Part shown: one piece after another, positions 2,573 through 50,659 of the stretch
Layout: every line of letters begins with the position of its first letter
Position numbering within the stretch: position 1 is the stretch's first letter
Assembly: GCA_025361725.1 (NCBI GenBank)
Contig: JANYJV010000140.1
Span: 9,428-73,427 of the forward strand
From: Acidimicrobiia bacterium
Lineage (GTDB): Bacteria > Actinomycetota > Acidimicrobiia > IMCC26256 > JAENVU01
Length of the DNA: 64,000 bases
Direction: 5' to 3'
Program-made: the position numbers and the translations under genes
Notes under the pieces: model-generated
Databases searched by the model: none
Told to the model about the DNA's origin: nothing
Seen by the model: only the letters and a program-made list of their open reading frames with translations

Positions 2573-3919
2573 GTGGAAAGCGTCGGCGCTCCGAACGGTG
2601 GCGTCCTGCATGCTGAGCGTTCGCGCTTCGGGGTTCAGCTGGCAGTGATCGTGGCCCTGGCTGCAATCGTGCGGGTCCTCGTCGTCGTTCTCGTCGATCC
2701 CCACGTCCCGCCGGTGGGTGACGCCAGCGCGTACCACCTCCTCGCCAACCACCTCGCCGACGGTCGCGGGTACATCCGTCCGTTCGATTTCACCAAGTTT
2801 CATCTCGTCGTCCCCACCGCCGAGTATCCACCGTTCCACCCGTTCGTCCTGTCACTCTTCGCCCGGCTCGGAGCGCGCAGCGTCGAGGCGCAGCGGCTCG
2901 GACTCACGGTCATCGGGTCCGCCACAGTCGCGCTGGTCGGGCTCGTCGGCCGCCAGATCGCCGGACCGCGCGTCGGCATCGTCGCCGCGGGGTTGGCCGC
3001 CGTCTCCCCCATGATGTTCCTGCCCGAGGCGACACTGATGAGCGAAGCGATCTTCGTCTTCCTCGTGACGTTGGCACTGTTCCTCGCGGGCCGGATACGC
3101 ACGAACCCGAACCTGCGCGCCTTTGCGGTGCTCGGGATCGTGCTCGGACTTGCCGCGCTGACGCGCGCCGAGGCCACCGTCCTCGCGGTGCTGCTCGTGG
3201 TTCCACTCGCCGTGAGCGCACCGGACGCGTCAGGTCGCCGCCGGATCGCACTCGGCGCAGTCGCCCTGGCGATGGTCGGTGCCGTGATGGTCCCGTGGGC
3301 GGTCCGGAACCAGACCGCCTTCCATTCGTTCGTGCCCGTCTCCAACAACCTCGGAACCGCGCTCGTCGGCGCCAACTGCGCACTCACGTACCAAGGCCCG
3401 GCGCTCGGATCGTGGCGGTCGACGTTCGGCACCGGCGATACCGCGACCGGTCAGTGCTTCACCGGCTTCAACGGCAGCCAACCCCACTTCAACGAGGCGA
3501 CAGCGGCGGGTGCCGCTCGCAAGAAGGGAATCGACTTCGCCCGCGATCACCTCGGGGAAGTTCCGAAAGTGGCGGCCGCACGCCTGCTGCGGAGCGCCGG
3601 TCTCTTCCGGCCCGGTCAGCAGATCGAACTCGAAGCGCTCGAGGGCCGGCCGATCGACTGGGAGCGGGCCGGAACCTATCTGGACTGGGTCCTGTATCCA
3701 TTCGCGGCCGTGGGCCTGTATCTCCTGCTGCGACGGCGGACAGGTGCGTGGCCGCTCGCCGCGGCGGTGATCAGCGTGCTCGTCTCCACGCTGGTCACGT
3801 ACGGCAACCAACGATTCCGCATCGGCGCCGAGCCGACGATCCTGATCGCCGCGGCGGCCGGCATCGTCGCGCTCGTGAGCCGGCGTCGGACGCCGCAGTC
3901 TGCGTCGGTTGTTGCGTGA
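2573..3919 (+). CDS. GT-C family membrane glycosyltransferase (ArnT/PMT-like, GT39/GT83-type)
   Basis: Tail of track ORF 2138..3919, trimmed to GTG 2573, which lies 3 nt after the methyltransferase stop. It is a multi-TM protein with first loop ...VGDASAYHLLANHLADGRGY..., then ...LAALTRAEATVLAV..., and C-terminus ...YGNQRFRIGAEPTILIAAAAGIVAL. It is a paralog of 42810..44165 (...YGQTRFRVPAEPIIVVLAAVAMT). Confidence 0.7.
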   Translation: MESVGAPNGGVLHAERSRFGVQLAVIVALAAIVRVLVVVLVDPHVPPVGDASAYHLLANHLADGRGYIRPFDFTKFHLVVPTAEYPPFHPFVLSLFARLGARSVEAQRLGLTVIGSATVALVGLVGRQIAGPRVGIVAAGLAAVSPMMFLPEATLMSEAIFVFLVTLALFLAGRIRTNPNLRAFAVLGIVLGLAALTRAEATVLAVLLVVPLAVSAPDASGRRRIALGAVALAMVGAVMVPWAVRNQTAFHSFVPVSNNLGTALVGANCALTYQGPALGSWRSTFGTGDTATGQCFTGFNGSQPHFNEATAAGAARKKGIDFARDHLGEVPKVAAARLLRSAGLFRPGQQIELEALEGRPIDWERAGTYLDWVLYPFAAVGLYLLLRRRTGAWPLAAAVISVLVSTLVTYGNQRFRIGAEPTILIAAAAGIVALVSRRRTPQSASVVA

Positions 3920-3957
3920 GGATCGTCGCGAACCCGAACCGGTAGGATCTCGGCCTC

Positions 3958-4269
3958 ATGCTCTGGCTCGAACGTCGTATTGTCGCCGCGCTCGCCGGGC
4001 CAGATGACCAGCGCACCGGTGGCGCGATCACGGAGTTCGTCGACACGTCGTTTCGGACCATGCCCCAACATCTTCGAGCCGGTGTCGTCGGAGAATCGAT
4101 CCTCCTCGGGGCCTACGTTCGCCTCCGGCGGGGGCCGAACCCGAGCCCAGCTGCGATCGTGGCCTCGATGGAGCAGTGGGAACACCATCCGATCGGCGTC
4201 ATCCGCCAGTACGCCCGGCTGCTGTCGTCGCTCGTCATCTTTCCCCAGCAAGAGATCGTCGACGGATGA
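3958..4269 (+). CDS. small hypothetical protein, translationally coupled to the GMC oxidoreductase
   Basis: 103-aa ORF starting at ATG 3958. Its TGA (4267-4269) overlaps ATG 4266 of the next gene (ATGA). I recognise no family. The balanced, non-repetitive composition (...EQWEHHPIGVIRQYARLLSSLVIF...) argues for real coding. Confidence 0.45.
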   Translation: MLWLERRIVAALAGPDDQRTGGAITEFVDTSFRTMPQHLRAGVVGESILLGAYVRLRRGPNPSPAAIVASMEQWEHHPIGVIRQYARLLSSLVIFPQQEIVDG

Positions 4270-45851: not shown

Positions 45852-46205
45852 TCAATCGTCCTCTGGGAGTTCGGCGGCGTCGTAGCCGGCTCGTGCGACC
45901 GGGATCGCTTCCACGGCTCCCAGCATGCCGAAGGCCGGCACGGTGAGCATGATCGAACCCAGCACTTCGTCCCAGGTTACGCCGACCTCGGCTGCGACGC
46001 GCGCGTGACGCGCGATGCCCGCAGCATTGCGCAGGACCACCGTGCACACGAGCCGGATCAACTCGTGCGTCTTACGATCCGGCGCCGGGAGGGAGTCGAT
46101 CTGGCTCAACCACGCGCTCTGCGCGTCGTGGAGTGCCGGAAACACCTCGTGCAGTGATTCCTCGAAGGGAAAGCTCCAGCCGGATTCGGGCACGGGCGTC
46201 ACCAC
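45852..46205 (-). CDS. carboxymuconolactone decarboxylase (AhpD-like) family protein
   Basis: 117 aa. ...DRKTHELIRLVCTVVLRNAAGIARHARVAAEVGVTWDEVLGSI... is CMD/AhpD-like. The stop lies 2 nt before the DUF35 start. Confidence 0.6.
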   Translation of the reverse strand: MVTPVPESGWSFPFEESLHEVFPALHDAQSAWLSQIDSLPAPDRKTHELIRLVCTVVLRNAAGIARHARVAAEVGVTWDEVLGSIMLTVPAFGMLGAVEAIPVARAGYDAAELPEDD

Positions 46206-46218
46206 CGGGACCGCGCGC

Positions 46219-46629
46219 TCACTCGGCGGGACGGAACTGGACGATCGTGACCTCGTCCGACGTCGGATGGAACACCGCGTCGAGCGCCATGCCGACCTCG
46301 AGCCGGTCGAACTCGCAGTCCACCACGTTGGTCATCATGCGCGGACCTTCGGCGAGGTCGACGACGGCCGCAACGTACGGCACACGTTCATGAAACGGTG
46401 GCAGATCGTTCCGGTGCACGACCGACCAGGTGTACAGCGTCGCCCGTCCCGAAGCGTCCATCCACTCGACGTCCGGACTCCAACAGTGCGGGCAGAACGG
46501 CCGAGGGTAGAAGTGCGTCCTCGTGCACGCATTGCAACGTTTGATCAGCAGACGTCTCTCGCGTGCCGCGTCCCAGAACGGTTGGGTCTCGAGGTCCGGC
46601 TGCGGAAGATCGAATCGCATCGCGGTCAT
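46219..46629 (-). CDS. DUF35 OB-fold / zinc-ribbon protein (second copy)
   Basis: 136 aa with a zinc ribbon KRCNACTRTHFYPRPFCPHCWS followed by an OB-fold. Confidence 0.75.
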   Translation of the reverse strand: MTAMRFDLPQPDLETQPFWDAARERRLLIKRCNACTRTHFYPRPFCPHCWSPDVEWMDASGRATLYTWSVVHRNDLPPFHERVPYVAAVVDLAEGPRMMTNVVDCEFDRLEVGMALDAVFHPTSDEVTIVQFRPAE

Positions 46630-46678
46630 GACGCGTCCTTCTGTCCGCGCCGGTCGCGCCGGTTGAGTCTGCGCACAC

Positions 46679-47110
46679 TCACGCGCGCACGGGCAGGGCG
46701 GCGACGGCGACGGCGGCCAGCTTTGACTCGCCGGCCTGGTTCGTGACGGTGCACTCGAGATCGACTCTTCGCTCCGACCCCTCTTCGTAGGTGCGCAGCA
46801 CCGTGACGTGGGTCGTCAGGACCTCACCGGGCCAGGTCTGCTTGGTGAATCGGATCTTGTAGTTGCGCAGGTTGCCGACGCCGACATAGTCGGTGATCGC
46901 CTTCCCGAGGAGCCCAGCAGTGAACATGCCGTGCCCGAACACACTCGGCAGACCGGCGGCCTGGGCTGCGACCTCGTCGGTGTGCATCGGATTGAAATCA
47001 CCCGACGCGCCGGCGTACATCACGAGATCCGTTCGTGTCAGCTCGTGCGCGTACTCGGGCGCCACATCACCGGCAGTCACGTCGTCGAAGAACAGCTTCG
47101 CCTCACTCAT
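46679..47110 (-). CDS. MaoC-like (R)-specific enoyl-CoA hydratase (hot-dog fold)
   Basis: 143 aa. ...YAGASGDFNPMHTDEVAAQAAGLPSVFGHGM... is the MaoC hydratase motif. Confidence 0.85.
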   Translation of the reverse strand: MSEAKLFFDDVTAGDVAPEYAHELTRTDLVMYAGASGDFNPMHTDEVAAQAAGLPSVFGHGMFTAGLLGKAITDYVGVGNLRNYKIRFTKQTWPGEVLTTHVTVLRTYEEGSERRVDLECTVTNQAGESKLAAVAVAALPVRA

Positions 47111-47196
47111 CCGACCCAGTGTCCCCGCTCCTCCACAGAAGCGTCAACTCTCCGACTGAGGTGCCATCATCGTCGCAGGCCCTCGTCGATCTGTCA

Positions 47197-47243
47197 GCGT
47201 TTGTCGCCGTAGACGTCTCACGGGTGGCGCAAACGACAAACGC
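47197..47243. repeat. 47-nt palindromic repeat, copy 1
   Basis: GCGTTTGTCGCCGTAGACGTCTCACGGGTGGCGCAAACGACAAACGC. The outer arms GCGTTTGTCG and CGACAAACGC are exact reverse complements. It matches copy 3 at 44 of 47 positions. Confidence 0.8.
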
Positions 47244-47293
47244 GAGGCGATGCGACCGGACGGACGGACGATTCACTCGGTGGCATCACCCGA

Positions 47294-47340
47294 GCGTTTG
47301 TCGTCTCGGACATCTGTGAGGTGGTTCAAACGCCAAACGC
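47294..47340. repeat. 47-nt palindromic repeat, copy 2 (degenerate)
   Basis: GCGTTTGTCGTCTCGGACATCTGTGAGGTGGTTCAAACGCCAAACGC, matching copy 3 at 36 of 47 positions, in the same orientation and register. It overlaps the last codons of the DUF559 pseudogene. Confidence 0.6.
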
Positions 47341-48248
47341 TCGCACCGACTGCACGATGTCGGCGTCGGTGTCCTTCGACGCGAAGGTGAGGACCCGCCA
47401 TCCGACGGCCGTGAGATCTCTCGCTCGTTTTGCATCGCCGTCGAAGGCGGTCCGTGTCCGGTGCGCATCGAAACCGTGATACTCCAAGGCCAGGCGAATG
47501 TCCGGGTAGGCCGCGTCGATGAAATACTTCTTCGGTCCGCAGCGAACCGGGTGTTGCCCGACCGGCTCGGAGAGGCCACCCTCACGCAACACCCGGAACA
47601 GACGCATTTCGGGCCGGCTGTCTGCGGTATCGGCCTCCGCCCCCGTTCGGCGATGAGCAGTCGCAACGTCTTCATCCGACGGCCGGGCGCAGGACCGAGG
47701 CGTTCCGCGGTCTCGGCGATCTCGTCGATCGTCACCAGCCGTCTCACCAAGGCGTCATCCATGACGCGCGCCAGCTGACCCATCGACAGGAGGCCTGTGC
47801 AGTGCACGATGGTGCAGGCGACCGACATCACGGGAATGCCGTCGATCGAAGCTCGGTCCTGAGGCGCAAGCACCAAACTGCGATGGACCACTACTCCCCG
47901 GAGCCGAAGCGCAGTTGTGCCGCCGACGGTCACGATGATCCGAGTCCGAGCGATTTCGTCGAGCCAGTACAGCGCAGCACCCGTCAGATGGGACGCCAAC
48001 GCGTCGCTCCCGGCCGCGAGTACCGCTGCCATCACCTTGTGATTCCACGACATCGGAGTCCCGGCGATTGCGTACACCCCCGGATGTCGGATGACTCAGA
48101 TCCCCGACTCGAGTCGGTGCTCCACCATCGAGCGGCTCATCCCGACGCCGACGGCCTGCTCGCGTGTCACCAACCCGAGTTGTCGTTGCGCCATCGTCGC
48201 AATTTCGTCCACGAGACGCACTCCTCTGCGGGTCGCACGCGGACGCAT
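47326..48248 (-). pseudogene. DUF559 (Vsr-like endonuclease domain) protein gene, disrupted by an in-frame TGA and a 1-nt frameshift
   Basis: My translation from ATG 48248 gives MRPRATRRGVRLVDEIATMAQRQLGLVTREQAVGVGMSRSMVEHRLESGI-TGA(48098-48096)-VIRHPGVYAIAGTPMSWNHKV... This runs on as track ORF 47286..48077 until ...LLIAERG. The DUF559 domain (MRLFRVLREGGLSEPVGQHPV...FIDAAYPDIRLALEYHGFDAH...GWRVLTF) then continues in the -1 frame (track ORF 47326..47607). The switch is at a C5 run, 47640-47644. The total length of 923 nt is 1 nt short of a multiple of 3. Confidence 0.7.
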
Positions 48249-48403
48249 CGATCGTGAACTTCTGGTGTGCATGGCTCGGCCCTCACCGTCATCGTCGCGA
48301 CGTCGTCGCGTACCTTCAAACGGGGGAAGCCATGAGGAAGCTCTCGCACAATACCGAGAGTGTGACAGCCATCATGAAGGTGCCGGAGGCGGCCCACAAC
48401 ACG

Positions 48404-48450
48404 GCGTTTGTCGCCGTGAACATCTCACGGGTGGCGCAAACGACAAACGC
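48404..48450. repeat. 47-nt palindromic repeat, copy 3
   Basis: GCGTTTGTCGCCGTGAACATCTCACGGGTGGCGCAAACGACAAACGC. It has the same outer 10-bp arms as copy 1 plus an inner 6-bp hairpin (CCGTGA/TCACGG). It ends 31 nt before the forward coordinate of the fused ACAD stop (48482). Confidence 0.8.
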
Positions 48451-48481
48451 CGGAGATGGGTTGGGGATGTGTGAGTTCGCT

Positions 48482-50659
48482 TCACGGGTCTTTGGGGAGG
48501 CCGAGGACTCGCTCGCCGATGATGTTGCGCTGAATTTCGCTGGTGCCACCGGCGATAGTGAGGTTCCGGGTGAAGAGGAACTGCTCGGACCAACCGGCCG
48601 CGGGACCCTCGGCGACCGCGCCGTCGGGGCCGAACATCGCAAGCCCAACTTCTTGCACGCGCTGGTCGTGTTCCACGCCGAGGAGTTTGCGGACCGACGC
48701 CTCCGAGCCGGACGGATCCGCGCCGCCGAGGGCGGAGAGCATCAGCCGGTATCCGAGCACCGACAACGCGTAGTCCCTGGCGACGAGTTCGCCGACCTCG
48801 CTCAGCGTTGCGGTGTCCGATTCCACGCCTTGCTCGCGCACCATGTCGAGGATCCCGCGTACCCCTCGGCCGATGGTGGATCCGTTCCCCATGAAGACGC
48901 GCTCGTTCGCCAGCGACGTGCGCGTGGCGCGCCAACCGTCGTGTTCACGGCCGACGAGACAGTCGTCGGGAATGAACACGTCGTTGAAGAAGACCTCATT
49001 GAAGAACGCGTGACCAGTGAGTTCGCGCAGCGGCCGGATGTCGATCCCGGGGGTGTTCATGTCCAGCATGAAGAACGAGATGCCCTCGTGCTTGGGTACC
49101 TCCGGATCGGTGCGAGCAAGCAGGATTCCCCAGCTGGCCTCCTTGGCCATCGAGGTCCACACTTTCTGGCCGTTGACCAACCAACCGCCTTCGATGCGCT
49201 CGGCGCGCGTGGACAGGCTTGCGAGGTCCGAACCCGCGCCGGGCTCGCTGAACAGCTGACACCAGCTGATATCGCCGTGCAGCGTGGGCGGGATCCATCG
49301 TTGCTGCTGTTCGACGGTGCCGTAGATCATCAGCGGCGGCAACGCCCACGCCCCGATCATCAGGGACGGTCGCGCCACCTTCGCGGCGCGGAACTCTTCG
49401 TCGATCACGAGCTGTTCGATGGCACCGGCATCGCGACCCCACGGCCGGGGCCACTGCGGTGCGAGGTAGCCGCCCTCGGCAAGCGCGACGCGAGTCGAGG
49501 CCGGGTCGAGACCTTGGAGCCCGTCGACGAACCCGGCCACCTCGGCTCGGATCGGTGCCGCCACCTCGGGGAGGTCCACCACCATCCGCCGGATTGCGCC
49601 TCCGAGCGCGTGCTGCGCACTCCGGACTCGCCACGACGACGACGTTCCCACCAACGCACGGGTCGTGATCGCCCGGCGTAGGTACACGTGGGCGTCGTGT
49701 TCCCACGTGAACCCGATACCACCCAGGACCTGCACGCAGTCCTTGGCGGTCTCGAAGAAGGAGTCGATCGTCAGCGCCCCGGCCGCGGCGGCAGTGAACG
49801 CCGCAGTCTCTGGATCGTCGATGCCCCGCGCCGCGTCCCACACGGCCGCCCGCGCCAACTCGGTGCGCGCCAGCATGTTGGCGCACCGGTGTTTCACTCC
49901 TTGGAACTGGCCGATCGGGCGTCCGAACTGGCGCCGGTCACGTGCGTAATCCGCGGCCGTGTCCACACACCACTGCGACGCGCCCACCGCATCCGCGGCG
50001 AACATCACGACGGCAAGATCTCGCACGCGGTCCGTCGGCACCGAGACGAACAGTCGTGACGCCGGAACCGTCGCGCCGACAGCAACACGCGCAACCCGAC
50101 GCGTGGGGTCGACGGTCGGCGCCTCCGCGGCCTCGTACTCTCCGGCCCGCAGCACGACCCACCCTCGCTCCGTGGGCGCGACGAGGAGACCGCTCAGGTG
50201 GCCCGAGAGCACCGAGCTCAGCTCGCCGTCGACGCGGATCTCCTCTGCACCCCCACCGTCGATCACCTGCAGTGAGCCATTCAGCGCGACGGCGCCGACG
50301 AGTCCGCCGGCGGCCAAGGATTCGAGGTGCTCTCGTACTTCGGTCTCACCGGTGCGGACCGCGTCAACCAACACTGCAACTGCGAGCGCGTGCGCGAGGA
50401 AGGGACCCGGCGCGCCGGCCCGACCCAACTCTTCGAGCACCACCACCACCTCTTCGAACGATGCACCTTCACCGCCATGGGCTTCGTCGACGGCCAGGCC
50501 CAACCAGCCCTGGCCCGTCAGCTCGGACCAGAACGAAGGAAGTCCTTCTTCGGGCGCGTCGAGGAGCGCACGCGGTACCGCCGGCGGACAATGGCGTTCG
50601 ACCCAACCCCGGACGGCTCGATGAAGGTGCTGGTGGTCTTCGCTGATCCCGATCGGCAT
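48482..50659 (-). CDS. fused two-module acyl-CoA dehydrogenase (beta-like module followed by alpha-like module)
   Basis: Track ORF 48482..51184, trimmed to ATG 50659 ([12 protein letters not shown]...). The N-terminal module ends ...[21 protein letters not shown], like 41764..42843. The C-terminal module has ...[17 protein letters not shown]...[11 protein letters not shown]...[22 protein letters not shown], like 40523..41716. The protein is 725 aa. Confidence 0.8.

Follow-up and report, generated by a model that had tools for sequence, protein, structure and literature searches.

Three direct copies of a 47-nucleotide (nt) palindrome surround a decayed DUF559 gene in the 64-kb stretch of Acidimicrobiia DNA analysed here (the window). 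The product of this gene combines an AbiEi-fold DNA-binding module with a Vsr-like EDxHD nuclease, and members of its family are accompanied by palindromes in the same layout in several genomic contexts. Because their geometry matches the precedents of AbiEi and of the endonuclease I-Bth0305I, the three elements are read as cognate, dyad-symmetric sites of the bracketed AbiEi-Vsr gene; gene and sites together are taken to constitute a self-contained, probably mobile cassette, which is dead in the window. Both the binding and cutting of the palindromes by the protein and the mobility of the cassette are what we infer from sequence comparison. Full-text searches found no published description of this association between gene and palindromes.

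The palindromes and the gene between them

The local genes all lie on the minus strand, in the order fused acyl-CoA dehydrogenase (ACAD, stop at 48482), copy 3, DUF559 pseudogene, copy 2, copy 1 and MaoC (start at 47110), with ChsH2-like and thiolase-like genes downstream of MaoC. Copy 3, the upstream palindrome (48404..48450, minus strand), lies 31 nt past the ACAD stop and 131 nt ahead of the DUF559 ATG. Copy 2 (47294..47340, minus strand) overlaps the stop codon of the gene, while copy 1, the distal downstream palindrome (47197..47243, minus strand), is situated 50 nt past copy 2, 86-87 nt from the MaoC start and 49 nt upstream of the -35 element of a promoter-like motif of MaoC. Repeat finding and sequence search across the 64 kb gave these three elements, each of 47 nt, in one shared orientation (all three were recovered as plus), and the consensus 47-mer had no match in 100 dinucleotide-preserving shuffles.

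Copies 1 and 3 are identical at 44 of 47 positions (94%); copy 2 agrees with copy 3 at 36 positions and with copy 1 at 35. An earlier note on this DNA, made from the letters alone, had described the three copies at these positions, the common orientation of copies 1 and 3, the 44/47 and 36/47 identities (the latter holds against copy 3), the 50-nt spacing, and distances of 31 and 87 nt to the ACAD stop and the MaoC start, all of which were recovered here. The inner CCGTGA/TCACGG hairpin that it assigned to copy 3 and the CAAACGC-CAAACGC repeat of copy 2 are likewise present. Its description of exact 10-bp arms in each copy is slightly overstated: copies 1 and 3 have perfectly matched arms, GCGTTTGTCG/CGACAAACGC, but the 3' arm of copy 2, CGCCAAACGC, has one mismatch.

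The bracketed gene, which that note had called a DUF559 pseudogene, is a degraded DUF559/AbiEi_4 gene (47326..48272, minus strand; delimited by translation and by alignment with a relative). It runs from an ATG at 48272 to a stop codon at 47328-47326 and carries two lesions, an in-frame TGA at 48098-48096, which is TGG in the aligned relative L022 (L-numbers denote contig loci of relatives), and a 1-nt deletion near 47638/47639. On the coding strand, copy 2 starts GCG TTT GGC GTT TGA, i.e., AFGV*, so that its arm supplies the last four codons and the stop of the pseudogene, an overlap that had previously been overlooked. Open reading frames (ORFs) of 255 amino acids (aa) in L070, L071 and L073-75 were considered as a less decayed allele and rejected, as their product (P0142) is the same frameshifted gene with out-of-frame read-through.

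The two-module architecture of the protein is supported by several lines of evidence. Pfam places AbiEi_4 in the N-terminal part and DUF559/MTES_1575 in the C-terminal part, and AbiEi models of PADLOC cover residues ~19-191 (E = 1e-27 to 1e-32). In the AlphaFold2 model (pLDDT 86), the N-terminal ~200 aa match the AbiEi structures 6y8q and 1zel (Foldseek, probability 1.0), and the C-terminal ~100 aa match the nuclease domain of I-Bth0305I (3r3p; probability 1.0, TM 0.68 on the target), which is also the only PDB match by sequence. Mapping of the EDxHD residues through the 3r3p sequence alignment and the published active site (PMC3239194) yields E222, D253, H271 and D280, all invariant in the family alignment. 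The variable 'x' corresponds to position 266, which is Q, H or D in the family (EYQG or EYHG in the close subfamily, EYDG or EVDG in more distant members), N in I-Bth0305I and H in Vsr (PMC3239194); its variation may tune the chemistry. The replacement of E.DG by EYQG/EYHG was considered as evidence of a dead nuclease and rejected, since position 266 is this variable 'x' and its change is no sign of inactivation. The family is large, with 8031 clusters at E <= 1e-10 (~8000 at 50% identity).

The two halves of the palindrome covary. In a gapless alignment of 35 copies, with positions 1-10 proposed to pair with 38-47 and positions 17-21 with 27-31, 85% of the cells are paired, against 73% in shuffles and 27-45% in slid controls; 61 cells carry changes on both sides, and the observed values were reached in none of 500 shuffles. 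Positions 8/40, for example, occur as UA, GC and AU, and positions 10/38 as GC and AU. Covariation of this dyad kind is compatible with a hairpin or cruciform as well as with recognition by a symmetric dimer. The palindrome owes its polarity to positions 11-16 and 32-37, which do not complement each other. The aligned copies begin with (G/C/A)CGTTTG and finish with CAAACGC, while CGTC is found in a few degenerate copies only.

Folding on both strands, a check proposed in the earlier note, produced stable stem-loops on either strand, and every window copy adopts the succession stem, internal loop, stem, loop. Over 32 copies there is no strand bias, the sense strand being more stable in 20 and the antisense strand in 10, with mean fold energies of -22.8 (sense) and -21.2 kcal/mol (antisense); because of this lack of strand preference, the folds make no case for an RNA or single-strand reading. 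The dimensions of the palindrome may be compared with known protein footprints. The site bound by AbiEi spans 49 bp and consists of two 23-bp inverted repeats with 3 bp between them, and Rv2827c from Mycobacterium tuberculosis binds two inverted-repeat pairs in tandem (PMC7319586), whereas the I-Bth0305I homodimer footprints ~60 bp round a central pseudopalindrome (PMC3239194). By analogy, an AbiEi-Vsr homodimer would be expected to recognise a target of this kind, 47 bp long and palindromic, in which the outer arms are conserved and the centre is self-complementary.

Recurrence of the layout in relatives

An intact counterpart is L022, from an Acidimicrobiia metagenome-assembled genome (MAG), which is syntenic with the window at 88% nt identity and encodes an intact DUF559 protein of 315 aa. 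Of its four palindromes, one lies over the stop codon (..SFVV*), one downstream and two upstream, the second of the upstream pair within an indel of ~80 nt relative to the window. Proteins 55-85% identical to that of L022 all have the C-terminus ..RAF[GV][VIT]* or a close variant, which is palindrome-arm sequence. At every locus examined for these close homologues, one or two palindromes lie upstream (113-203 nt from the start codon), one overlaps the stop codon, with its start 14 nt ahead of the end of that codon, and at most one further copy follows. All copies are direct, exactly 47 nt long and share the termini GCGTTTGNC / GNCAAACGC, while their interiors are lineage-specific, yet homogenised and nearly identical within one locus.

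This layout is encountered in three contexts: next to ACAD and MaoC (L083, L084, L087), between XdhC and a short-chain dehydrogenase gene, adh_short (L085/L086), and between a hypothetical gene and a convergent ACAD gene (L106). The gene tree does not follow genomic context: the L084 protein is closer to that of L085, from another context (75% identity), than to those of L022 and L083, from the same one (61-64%).

Outside the close subfamily, one metagenome scan yielded 18 loci whose homologues are 36-47% identical. These loci have palindromes of unrelated sequence (e.g., GAGCAAGTGACGAT..ATCGTCACTTGCTC in L100), but the same layout recurs, with a palindrome over the stop and a direct copy upstream, in some cases with tandem copies downstream. 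In L096 (40% identity), three tandem palindromes follow the stop and two precede the gene, with a period of 61 nt (3873-4055; 2817-2925); its downstream units each repeat the last codons of the gene (CGCAGCAAGTGA). The palindromes thus co-diverge with the protein that they accompany. An upstream copy at least 62% identical to the 48-nt stop segment was found within 450 nt for 11 of 13 family genes, compared with 1 of 90 control ORFs taken from the same loci. Similarly, 10 of 16 distant homologues, against 6.7% of 149 controls, have a palindrome across the stop that spans 45-54 nt and has arms measuring 9 bp or more. The fold energy of the 48 nt at the stop did not discriminate family genes from control ORFs in this GC-rich DNA.

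These comparisons bear on the idea, akin to roles listed in the earlier note, that the elements are generic hairpins of the repetitive extragenic palindromic (REP) or terminator kind, dense here by chance and with no functional tie to the DUF559 gene. Stable stem-loops on both strands in all copies would agree with it, and so would the solo copies that lie 11-42 nt past the stop codons of unrelated genes. It is nevertheless disfavoured, and we consider it improbable: bracketing recurs with unrelated palindromes at 36-47% identity and in three contexts, upstream copies distinguish family genes from control ORFs, and the other intergenic regions of the 64-kb window contain no copy. Moreover, a scan for intrinsic terminators over 47000-48600 found none at any of the three palindromes and no T-run after them, their 3' flanks being G-rich (TCGGGGTGGG-like) rather than T-rich; an Rfam scan of 46000-49500 at E <= 1 gave no match, and a scan for canonical promoters gave nothing at the palindromes. 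The earlier suggestion of a terminator or of an operator for a dimeric regulator therefore loses its first half, for want of a canonical terminator, and gains for its second half a likely binder, the AbiEi-fold product of the gene itself.

The occupancy of the ACAD-MaoC site was followed by tracing MaoC orthologues to their contigs. The site is occupied by DUF559 and palindromes in L070-76, one 2.2-kb contig, L107-111, L083 and L084. In L082, from a 3.8-Mb genome with an 84% identical MaoC, the ACAD stop and the MaoC start are separated by 77 nt with neither DUF559 nor palindrome. L079-81 contain two unrelated genes in the spacer, without a palindrome, and the site is rearranged in L078. The comparison with relatives lacking the DUF559 gene, which the earlier note had recommended, therefore uncovered an insertion polymorphism (L082 being empty), but not the single copy that was to mark an empty site: no 'solo palindrome' allele was found here, and the relatives with a 89-97% identical MaoC and a contig reaching upstream are all occupied, except L078. 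That note had also reckoned with a motif occurring nowhere else and a locus free of insertion polymorphism; both further occurrences and polymorphism were found.

The number of copies varies as well. L109 and L111 have four palindromes and L110 has three, just as the window has three against the four of L022. The count in L110 results from the loss of exactly one 93-nt unit relative to L109/L111, with the stop copy and the distal copy fused. As judged from these alignments, recombination between direct copies demonstrably removes units, both in L110 and in the window. The interior of copy 1 is closer to the upstream copies of L022 than to its positional orthologue, which points to gene conversion among the palindromes. 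The window cassette, lodged between the ACAD gene and the promoter of the MaoC operon, is decaying: it has lost one of the upstream copies and acquired a premature stop and a frameshift.

An insert flanked by direct repeats, together with an empty site, could also be expected if the palindromes were att- or attC-type sites of a tyrosine or serine recombinase encoded elsewhere, with the DUF559 gene as cargo. The conserved ends, variable middle and hairpin potential of the copies, and the position of one of them at the 3' end of the ORF, as with attC, are in keeping with such a role. It is nonetheless a very improbable explanation. The cargo is always the same gene family, with which the site sequence co-varies, and no integrase was found in or next to the cassettes, the sole integrase-like match being an rve fragment in L087. 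The core motifs that define attC sites, RYYYAAC/GTTRRRY, are absent from the 35-copy alignment on direct reading, and no cassette arrays were seen at the loci. Hence, of the earlier proposal that the copies are what remains of the attachment or recombination sites of a small cassette that had been inserted, the cassette survives, bounded by palindromes, absent from L082 and present elsewhere (L085, L106); the copies are intact, conserved and co-evolving rather than remnants, and no recombinase accompanies them.

Solo copies, known systems and a possible mode of action

Palindromes also occur without the gene. Solo copies were collected by a pattern scan of representative genome contigs, with the pattern fixed to the heptad arms; it returned 69 loci, most of them unrelated palindrome families of other phyla (e.g., Desulfatibacillum). 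The same 47-mer is found on other contigs of the MAG of L022, at no fewer than four further loci with no DUF559 homologue within 8 kb: as a doublet directly after an acyl-CoA synthetase stop (L055), a doublet between two convergent stop codons (L002), a singlet 17 nt past an ACAD stop (L043) and a doublet near the 5' end of a hydrolase gene (L052). The search for the 47-mer in the genomes of relatives, advised in the earlier note, thus revealed singlets and doublets in other intergenic regions. Gene-less copies are mostly direct doublets, 62-73 nt from start to start, and sister variants of the palindrome are present in other Acidimicrobiia MAGs (L034, L058, L059, L068). A tblastn search at E <= 1 for DUF559 remnants beside solo copies gave nothing credible; the solo copies may be excision footprints or independent insertions.

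Solo copies could alternatively be regulon sites. The strongest rival to a mobile cassette is a non-mobile host regulator, for which the upstream palindromes would be autoregulatory operators. The stop copy would then act as a roadblock at the 3' end or as a partner in looping, and the several contexts would have arisen by ordinary rearrangement and paralogy. The AbiEi fold, the paired operators of 49-59 bp known for AbiEi and Rv2827c (PMC7319586), the co-divergence of palindromes and protein, and the long vertical inheritance of the cassette at ACAD/MaoC would all suit it. We still regard such a regulator as rather unlikely. The catalytic motif of the nuclease is fully conserved, a site is kept over the stop codon at the 3' end in lineages down to 36% identity, and the solo copies are located just past stop codons, even between convergent genes (L002), and not at promoters. 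Furthermore, the whole unit is missing from L082 and present in three unrelated contexts, with a gene tree discordant with context.

A selfish unit that is at least occasionally mobile seems the best reading of the same observations, because the sites are two-ended and the ORF runs into the 3' site, and because the unit occurs in several contexts, is lacking in a syntenic relative, has a context-discordant gene tree and is matched by gene-less solo copies. The proposed cassette consists of one or two palindromes upstream, its own 5' region and ORF, a stop-supplying palindrome and then none, one or more further palindromes, all direct. A symmetric protein dimer would bind each 47-bp palindrome, with the DNA-binding domains contacting the outer arms and the nuclease domains placed over the centre. 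The upstream sites would probably be autoregulatory as well, as in AbiEi. Binding or cutting at both ends might then allow the cassette to persist and spread as a selfish unit, whereas recombination between direct copies would collapse doublets and could delete the gene, leaving solo singlets or doublets. Solo doublets would be possible landing sites, offering homology on both sides.

Several considerations weigh against this interpretation. The evidence is comparative throughout and comes mostly from fragmented MAGs. The cassette has been inherited vertically at the ACAD/MaoC locus for a long time, since relatives with 89-97% identical MaoC and contigs reaching upstream of it are all occupied except for the rearranged L078, and no recent gain or loss was caught; the empty site of L082 could represent loss instead of the ancestral state. 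Conservation of the arms among solo copies is partly ascertainment, because the search pattern forced the arm sequence. No further copy was detected in the 64-kb window by nhmmer or a covariance model, and no target-site duplication was found at the flanks of 30 or more copies. Upstream copies lie farther from the start codon than known AbiEi operators do, intact sites on both sides of the gene misfit classical homing, where insertion destroys the target, and a nuclease of the PD-(D/E)xK type is by itself incapable of strand transfer.

Comparison with known systems suggests a mosaic of familiar features. The logic of the cassette resembles that of REP/REPIN-RAYT systems (PMC3116915, PMC3337134), in which one gene lies between short cognate palindromes of its own, other copies, frequently doublets, are scattered through intergenic regions, and the palindrome is lineage-specific and inherited with the gene. 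The enzyme is different: RAYTs are Y1 HUH transposases, and no Y1 transposase is present in the gene tables of the loci. In addition, the palindromes flank the gene in direct rather than inverted orientation, with one over the stop, and their copy number appears low. They have neither of the conserved tags, GTAG or CGTC, that mark one end of REP palindromes (PMC3733652). Dispersed solo copies occur in the MAG of L022 and in other Acidimicrobiia MAGs; the window has three local copies only. The REP/MITE-like element (MITE, miniature inverted-repeat transposable element) of the earlier note is accordingly supported in part by the solo singlets and doublets of a relative, but not by the missing target-site duplication, the non-RAYT gene or the single-locus distribution in the window.

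Operators of the AbiEi type are built of a pair of 23-bp inverted repeats with a gap of 3 or 13 bp (49-59 bp overall), and some have two such pairs in tandem (PMC7319586, PMC3985639); both the size and the doublet arrangement of the 47-bp palindromes are near to these; the N-terminal ~200 residues of the protein also share the AbiEi fold with its winged-helix DNA-binding domain. Unlike in AbiE type IV toxin-antitoxin systems, no AbiEii (DUF1814) toxin gene is found beside the gene in any locus, the neighbours being ACAD, MaoC, XdhC, adh_short and hypothetical genes, and a nuclease domain replaces or extends the antitoxin function. Unlike AbiEi operators, the sites are not confined to the upstream side: the 3' end of the gene has one too, and there are solo copies elsewhere; the upstream ones lie 113-203 nt from the start codon.

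EDxHD homing endonucleases, represented by I-Bth0305I (PMC3239194), share the 3r3p-type nuclease fold with conserved E, D, H and D residues, and the combination of a DNA-binding region with a C-terminal nuclease; I-Bth0305I itself acts as a homodimer, with a pseudopalindrome at the centre of its ~60-bp footprint. In contrast to I-Bth0305I, the gene stands alone between other genes rather than within an intron or intein, its DNA-binding module is of the AbiEi type and not NUMOD, and the putative sites are whole on either side and are not split by the gene. Integron cassettes differ in their attC cores, integrase and arrays, MITEs and classical insertion sequences in their target-site duplications and DDE transposase (none is encoded within the cassette), and intrinsic terminators in the T-run that follows the palindrome.

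The ends of IS200/IS605 elements are imperfect hairpins in the same orientation instead of terminal inverted repeats, in which they are similar to the palindromes described here. Two further points of resemblance are that these elements produce no target-site duplication and that small, gene-less derivatives are dispersed in genomes. The differences are the absence of TnpA/TnpB, the symmetric palindromes with no strand preference in folding, and the ORF running into the 3' palindrome. Taken together, the gene-palindrome module lacks features that define RAYT/REP systems, the AbiE toxin-antitoxin system, intron- or intein-borne homing endonucleases, integron cassettes, MITEs and intrinsic terminators, while it borrows features of several of them.

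A more far-reaching proposal, which we put forward tentatively and hold to be somewhat doubtful, is that AbiEi-Vsr ('DUF559') proteins are the enzymes of an unrecognised class of bacterial selfish element. The gene for a site-specific EDxHD endonuclease would lie between direct copies of the enzyme's own ~47-bp palindromic site; the enzyme would cut solo palindromes or doublets, and the cassette would be copied in by recombination through the flanking palindromes. Alternatively, the enzyme might disperse the palindromes themselves, like RAYTs with REPs. If correct, this would provide a function for the 'DUF559' family and a second, mechanistically unrelated REP-type system. Mobility of the cassette would imply a new build of selfish element, in which direct, hairpin-like ends are combined with an AbiEi DNA-binding module and a Vsr-like nuclease, and a second origin of REP-like repeats. 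If the gene is not mobile, the paradigm of the AbiEi operator would be extended to a nuclease that has sites at either end of its gene.

DUF559-AbiEi fusions abound, especially in Actinomycetota, and no function has been assigned to them; a co-evolving 47-bp palindrome at both ends of the gene provides a concrete, testable hypothesis, as the presumed substrate is known, the protein is small and the catalytic motif is intact. Short palindromes near AbiEi-Vsr genes should not be labelled terminators or generic REPs in annotation, and the conserved C-terminal ..RAFGV may reflect constraint on DNA instead of protein. Searches of a plasmid collection (megablast of the locus and tblastn of P0143) gave no match, so that no cultured, annotated example was obtained.

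Flanking sequences and the ACAD-MaoC spacer

The 5' region of the cassette (48273..48403, minus strand) contains two further elements, the positions of which are conserved in relatives. One is a perfect 15-nt palindrome, CGCGACGTCGTCGCG, at 48296-48310, 24 nt upstream of the DUF559 ATG, which is replaced by different sequences in relatives (GCGACGC..GCGTCGC in L084, CCGCCAATTGGCGG in L083). The other is a CTTCCCC motif at 48329-48323; it is common to relatives 55-70 nt before the start and is able to pair with GGGGAG/GGGGAAG near the start codon. The two elements may form a second, promoter-proximal operator or a hairpin hiding the ribosome-binding site.

On the other side of the cassette, a promoter-like motif precedes MaoC (47119-47147, minus strand), consisting of TTGACG, 17 nt, GACACT and ~8 nt to the ATG at 47110. 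The short distance between the end of the motif and the ATG suggests that the MaoC transcript is leaderless or nearly so. The sequence GTTGACG(C/T)T..TGT..AGG.A.CGGGGACACTG is conserved in L078, L079, L082, L083 and L084, even where ACAD is directly upstream. The spacer between ACAD and MaoC is a hot spot of insertion and rearrangement (L079-L081, 3083-5001; L078, 4718-5001): L079-L081 contain a PQQ_2-like gene of 433 aa and a reverse gene of 145 aa, and L078 has a divergent amino-acid permease gene upstream of MaoC.

Several short-read contigs of near-identical strains end within 50-75 nt of a palindrome (L071 and L073-L075 start 72-75 nt before copy 3, and L077 starts 52 nt before MaoC). Contig ends near palindromes would be expected if a repeat or copy-number variation breaks assemblies. 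In L087 (4814-5212), the stop palindrome is degenerate (CCGTTTGTCGAGTAG...) and adjoins the rve-integrase fragment on the opposite strand; apparently, an insertion sequence landed in or beside this 3' palindrome.

A C-rich tract (CCCCCACCC / CCTCC) stands before many of the non-coding copies, and G-rich sequence resembling TCGGGGTGGG comes after them (e.g., L083 3716-3729, L085 1295-1309 and 2495-2515, L106 2740-2767, and window 48451-48481). The sequence acccccaccc(t/a)ctc(c)a stands right after the stop of the upstream gene in both L083 and L085 despite their different contexts. These flanks could represent a target preference (a terminator stem) or the outer part of the repeat unit.

Among the palindromes of other phyla returned by the pattern scan, Desulfatibacillum alkenivorans DSM 16219 has an unrelated family, agtctaCGTTTGACGTTTGAG-N(13-18)-CTCAAACGTCAAACGtagact, at 12 or more loci (including L007, L009, L017, L035, L040, L042, L044, L046, L051, L063 and L066). 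Similar palindromes with CGTTTGNCGTTTG arms are present in MAGs of Bacteroidota, Anaerolineae and Planctomycetota. The heptad common to these unrelated families may be a coincidence forced by the pattern or a recurrent protein-binding motif.

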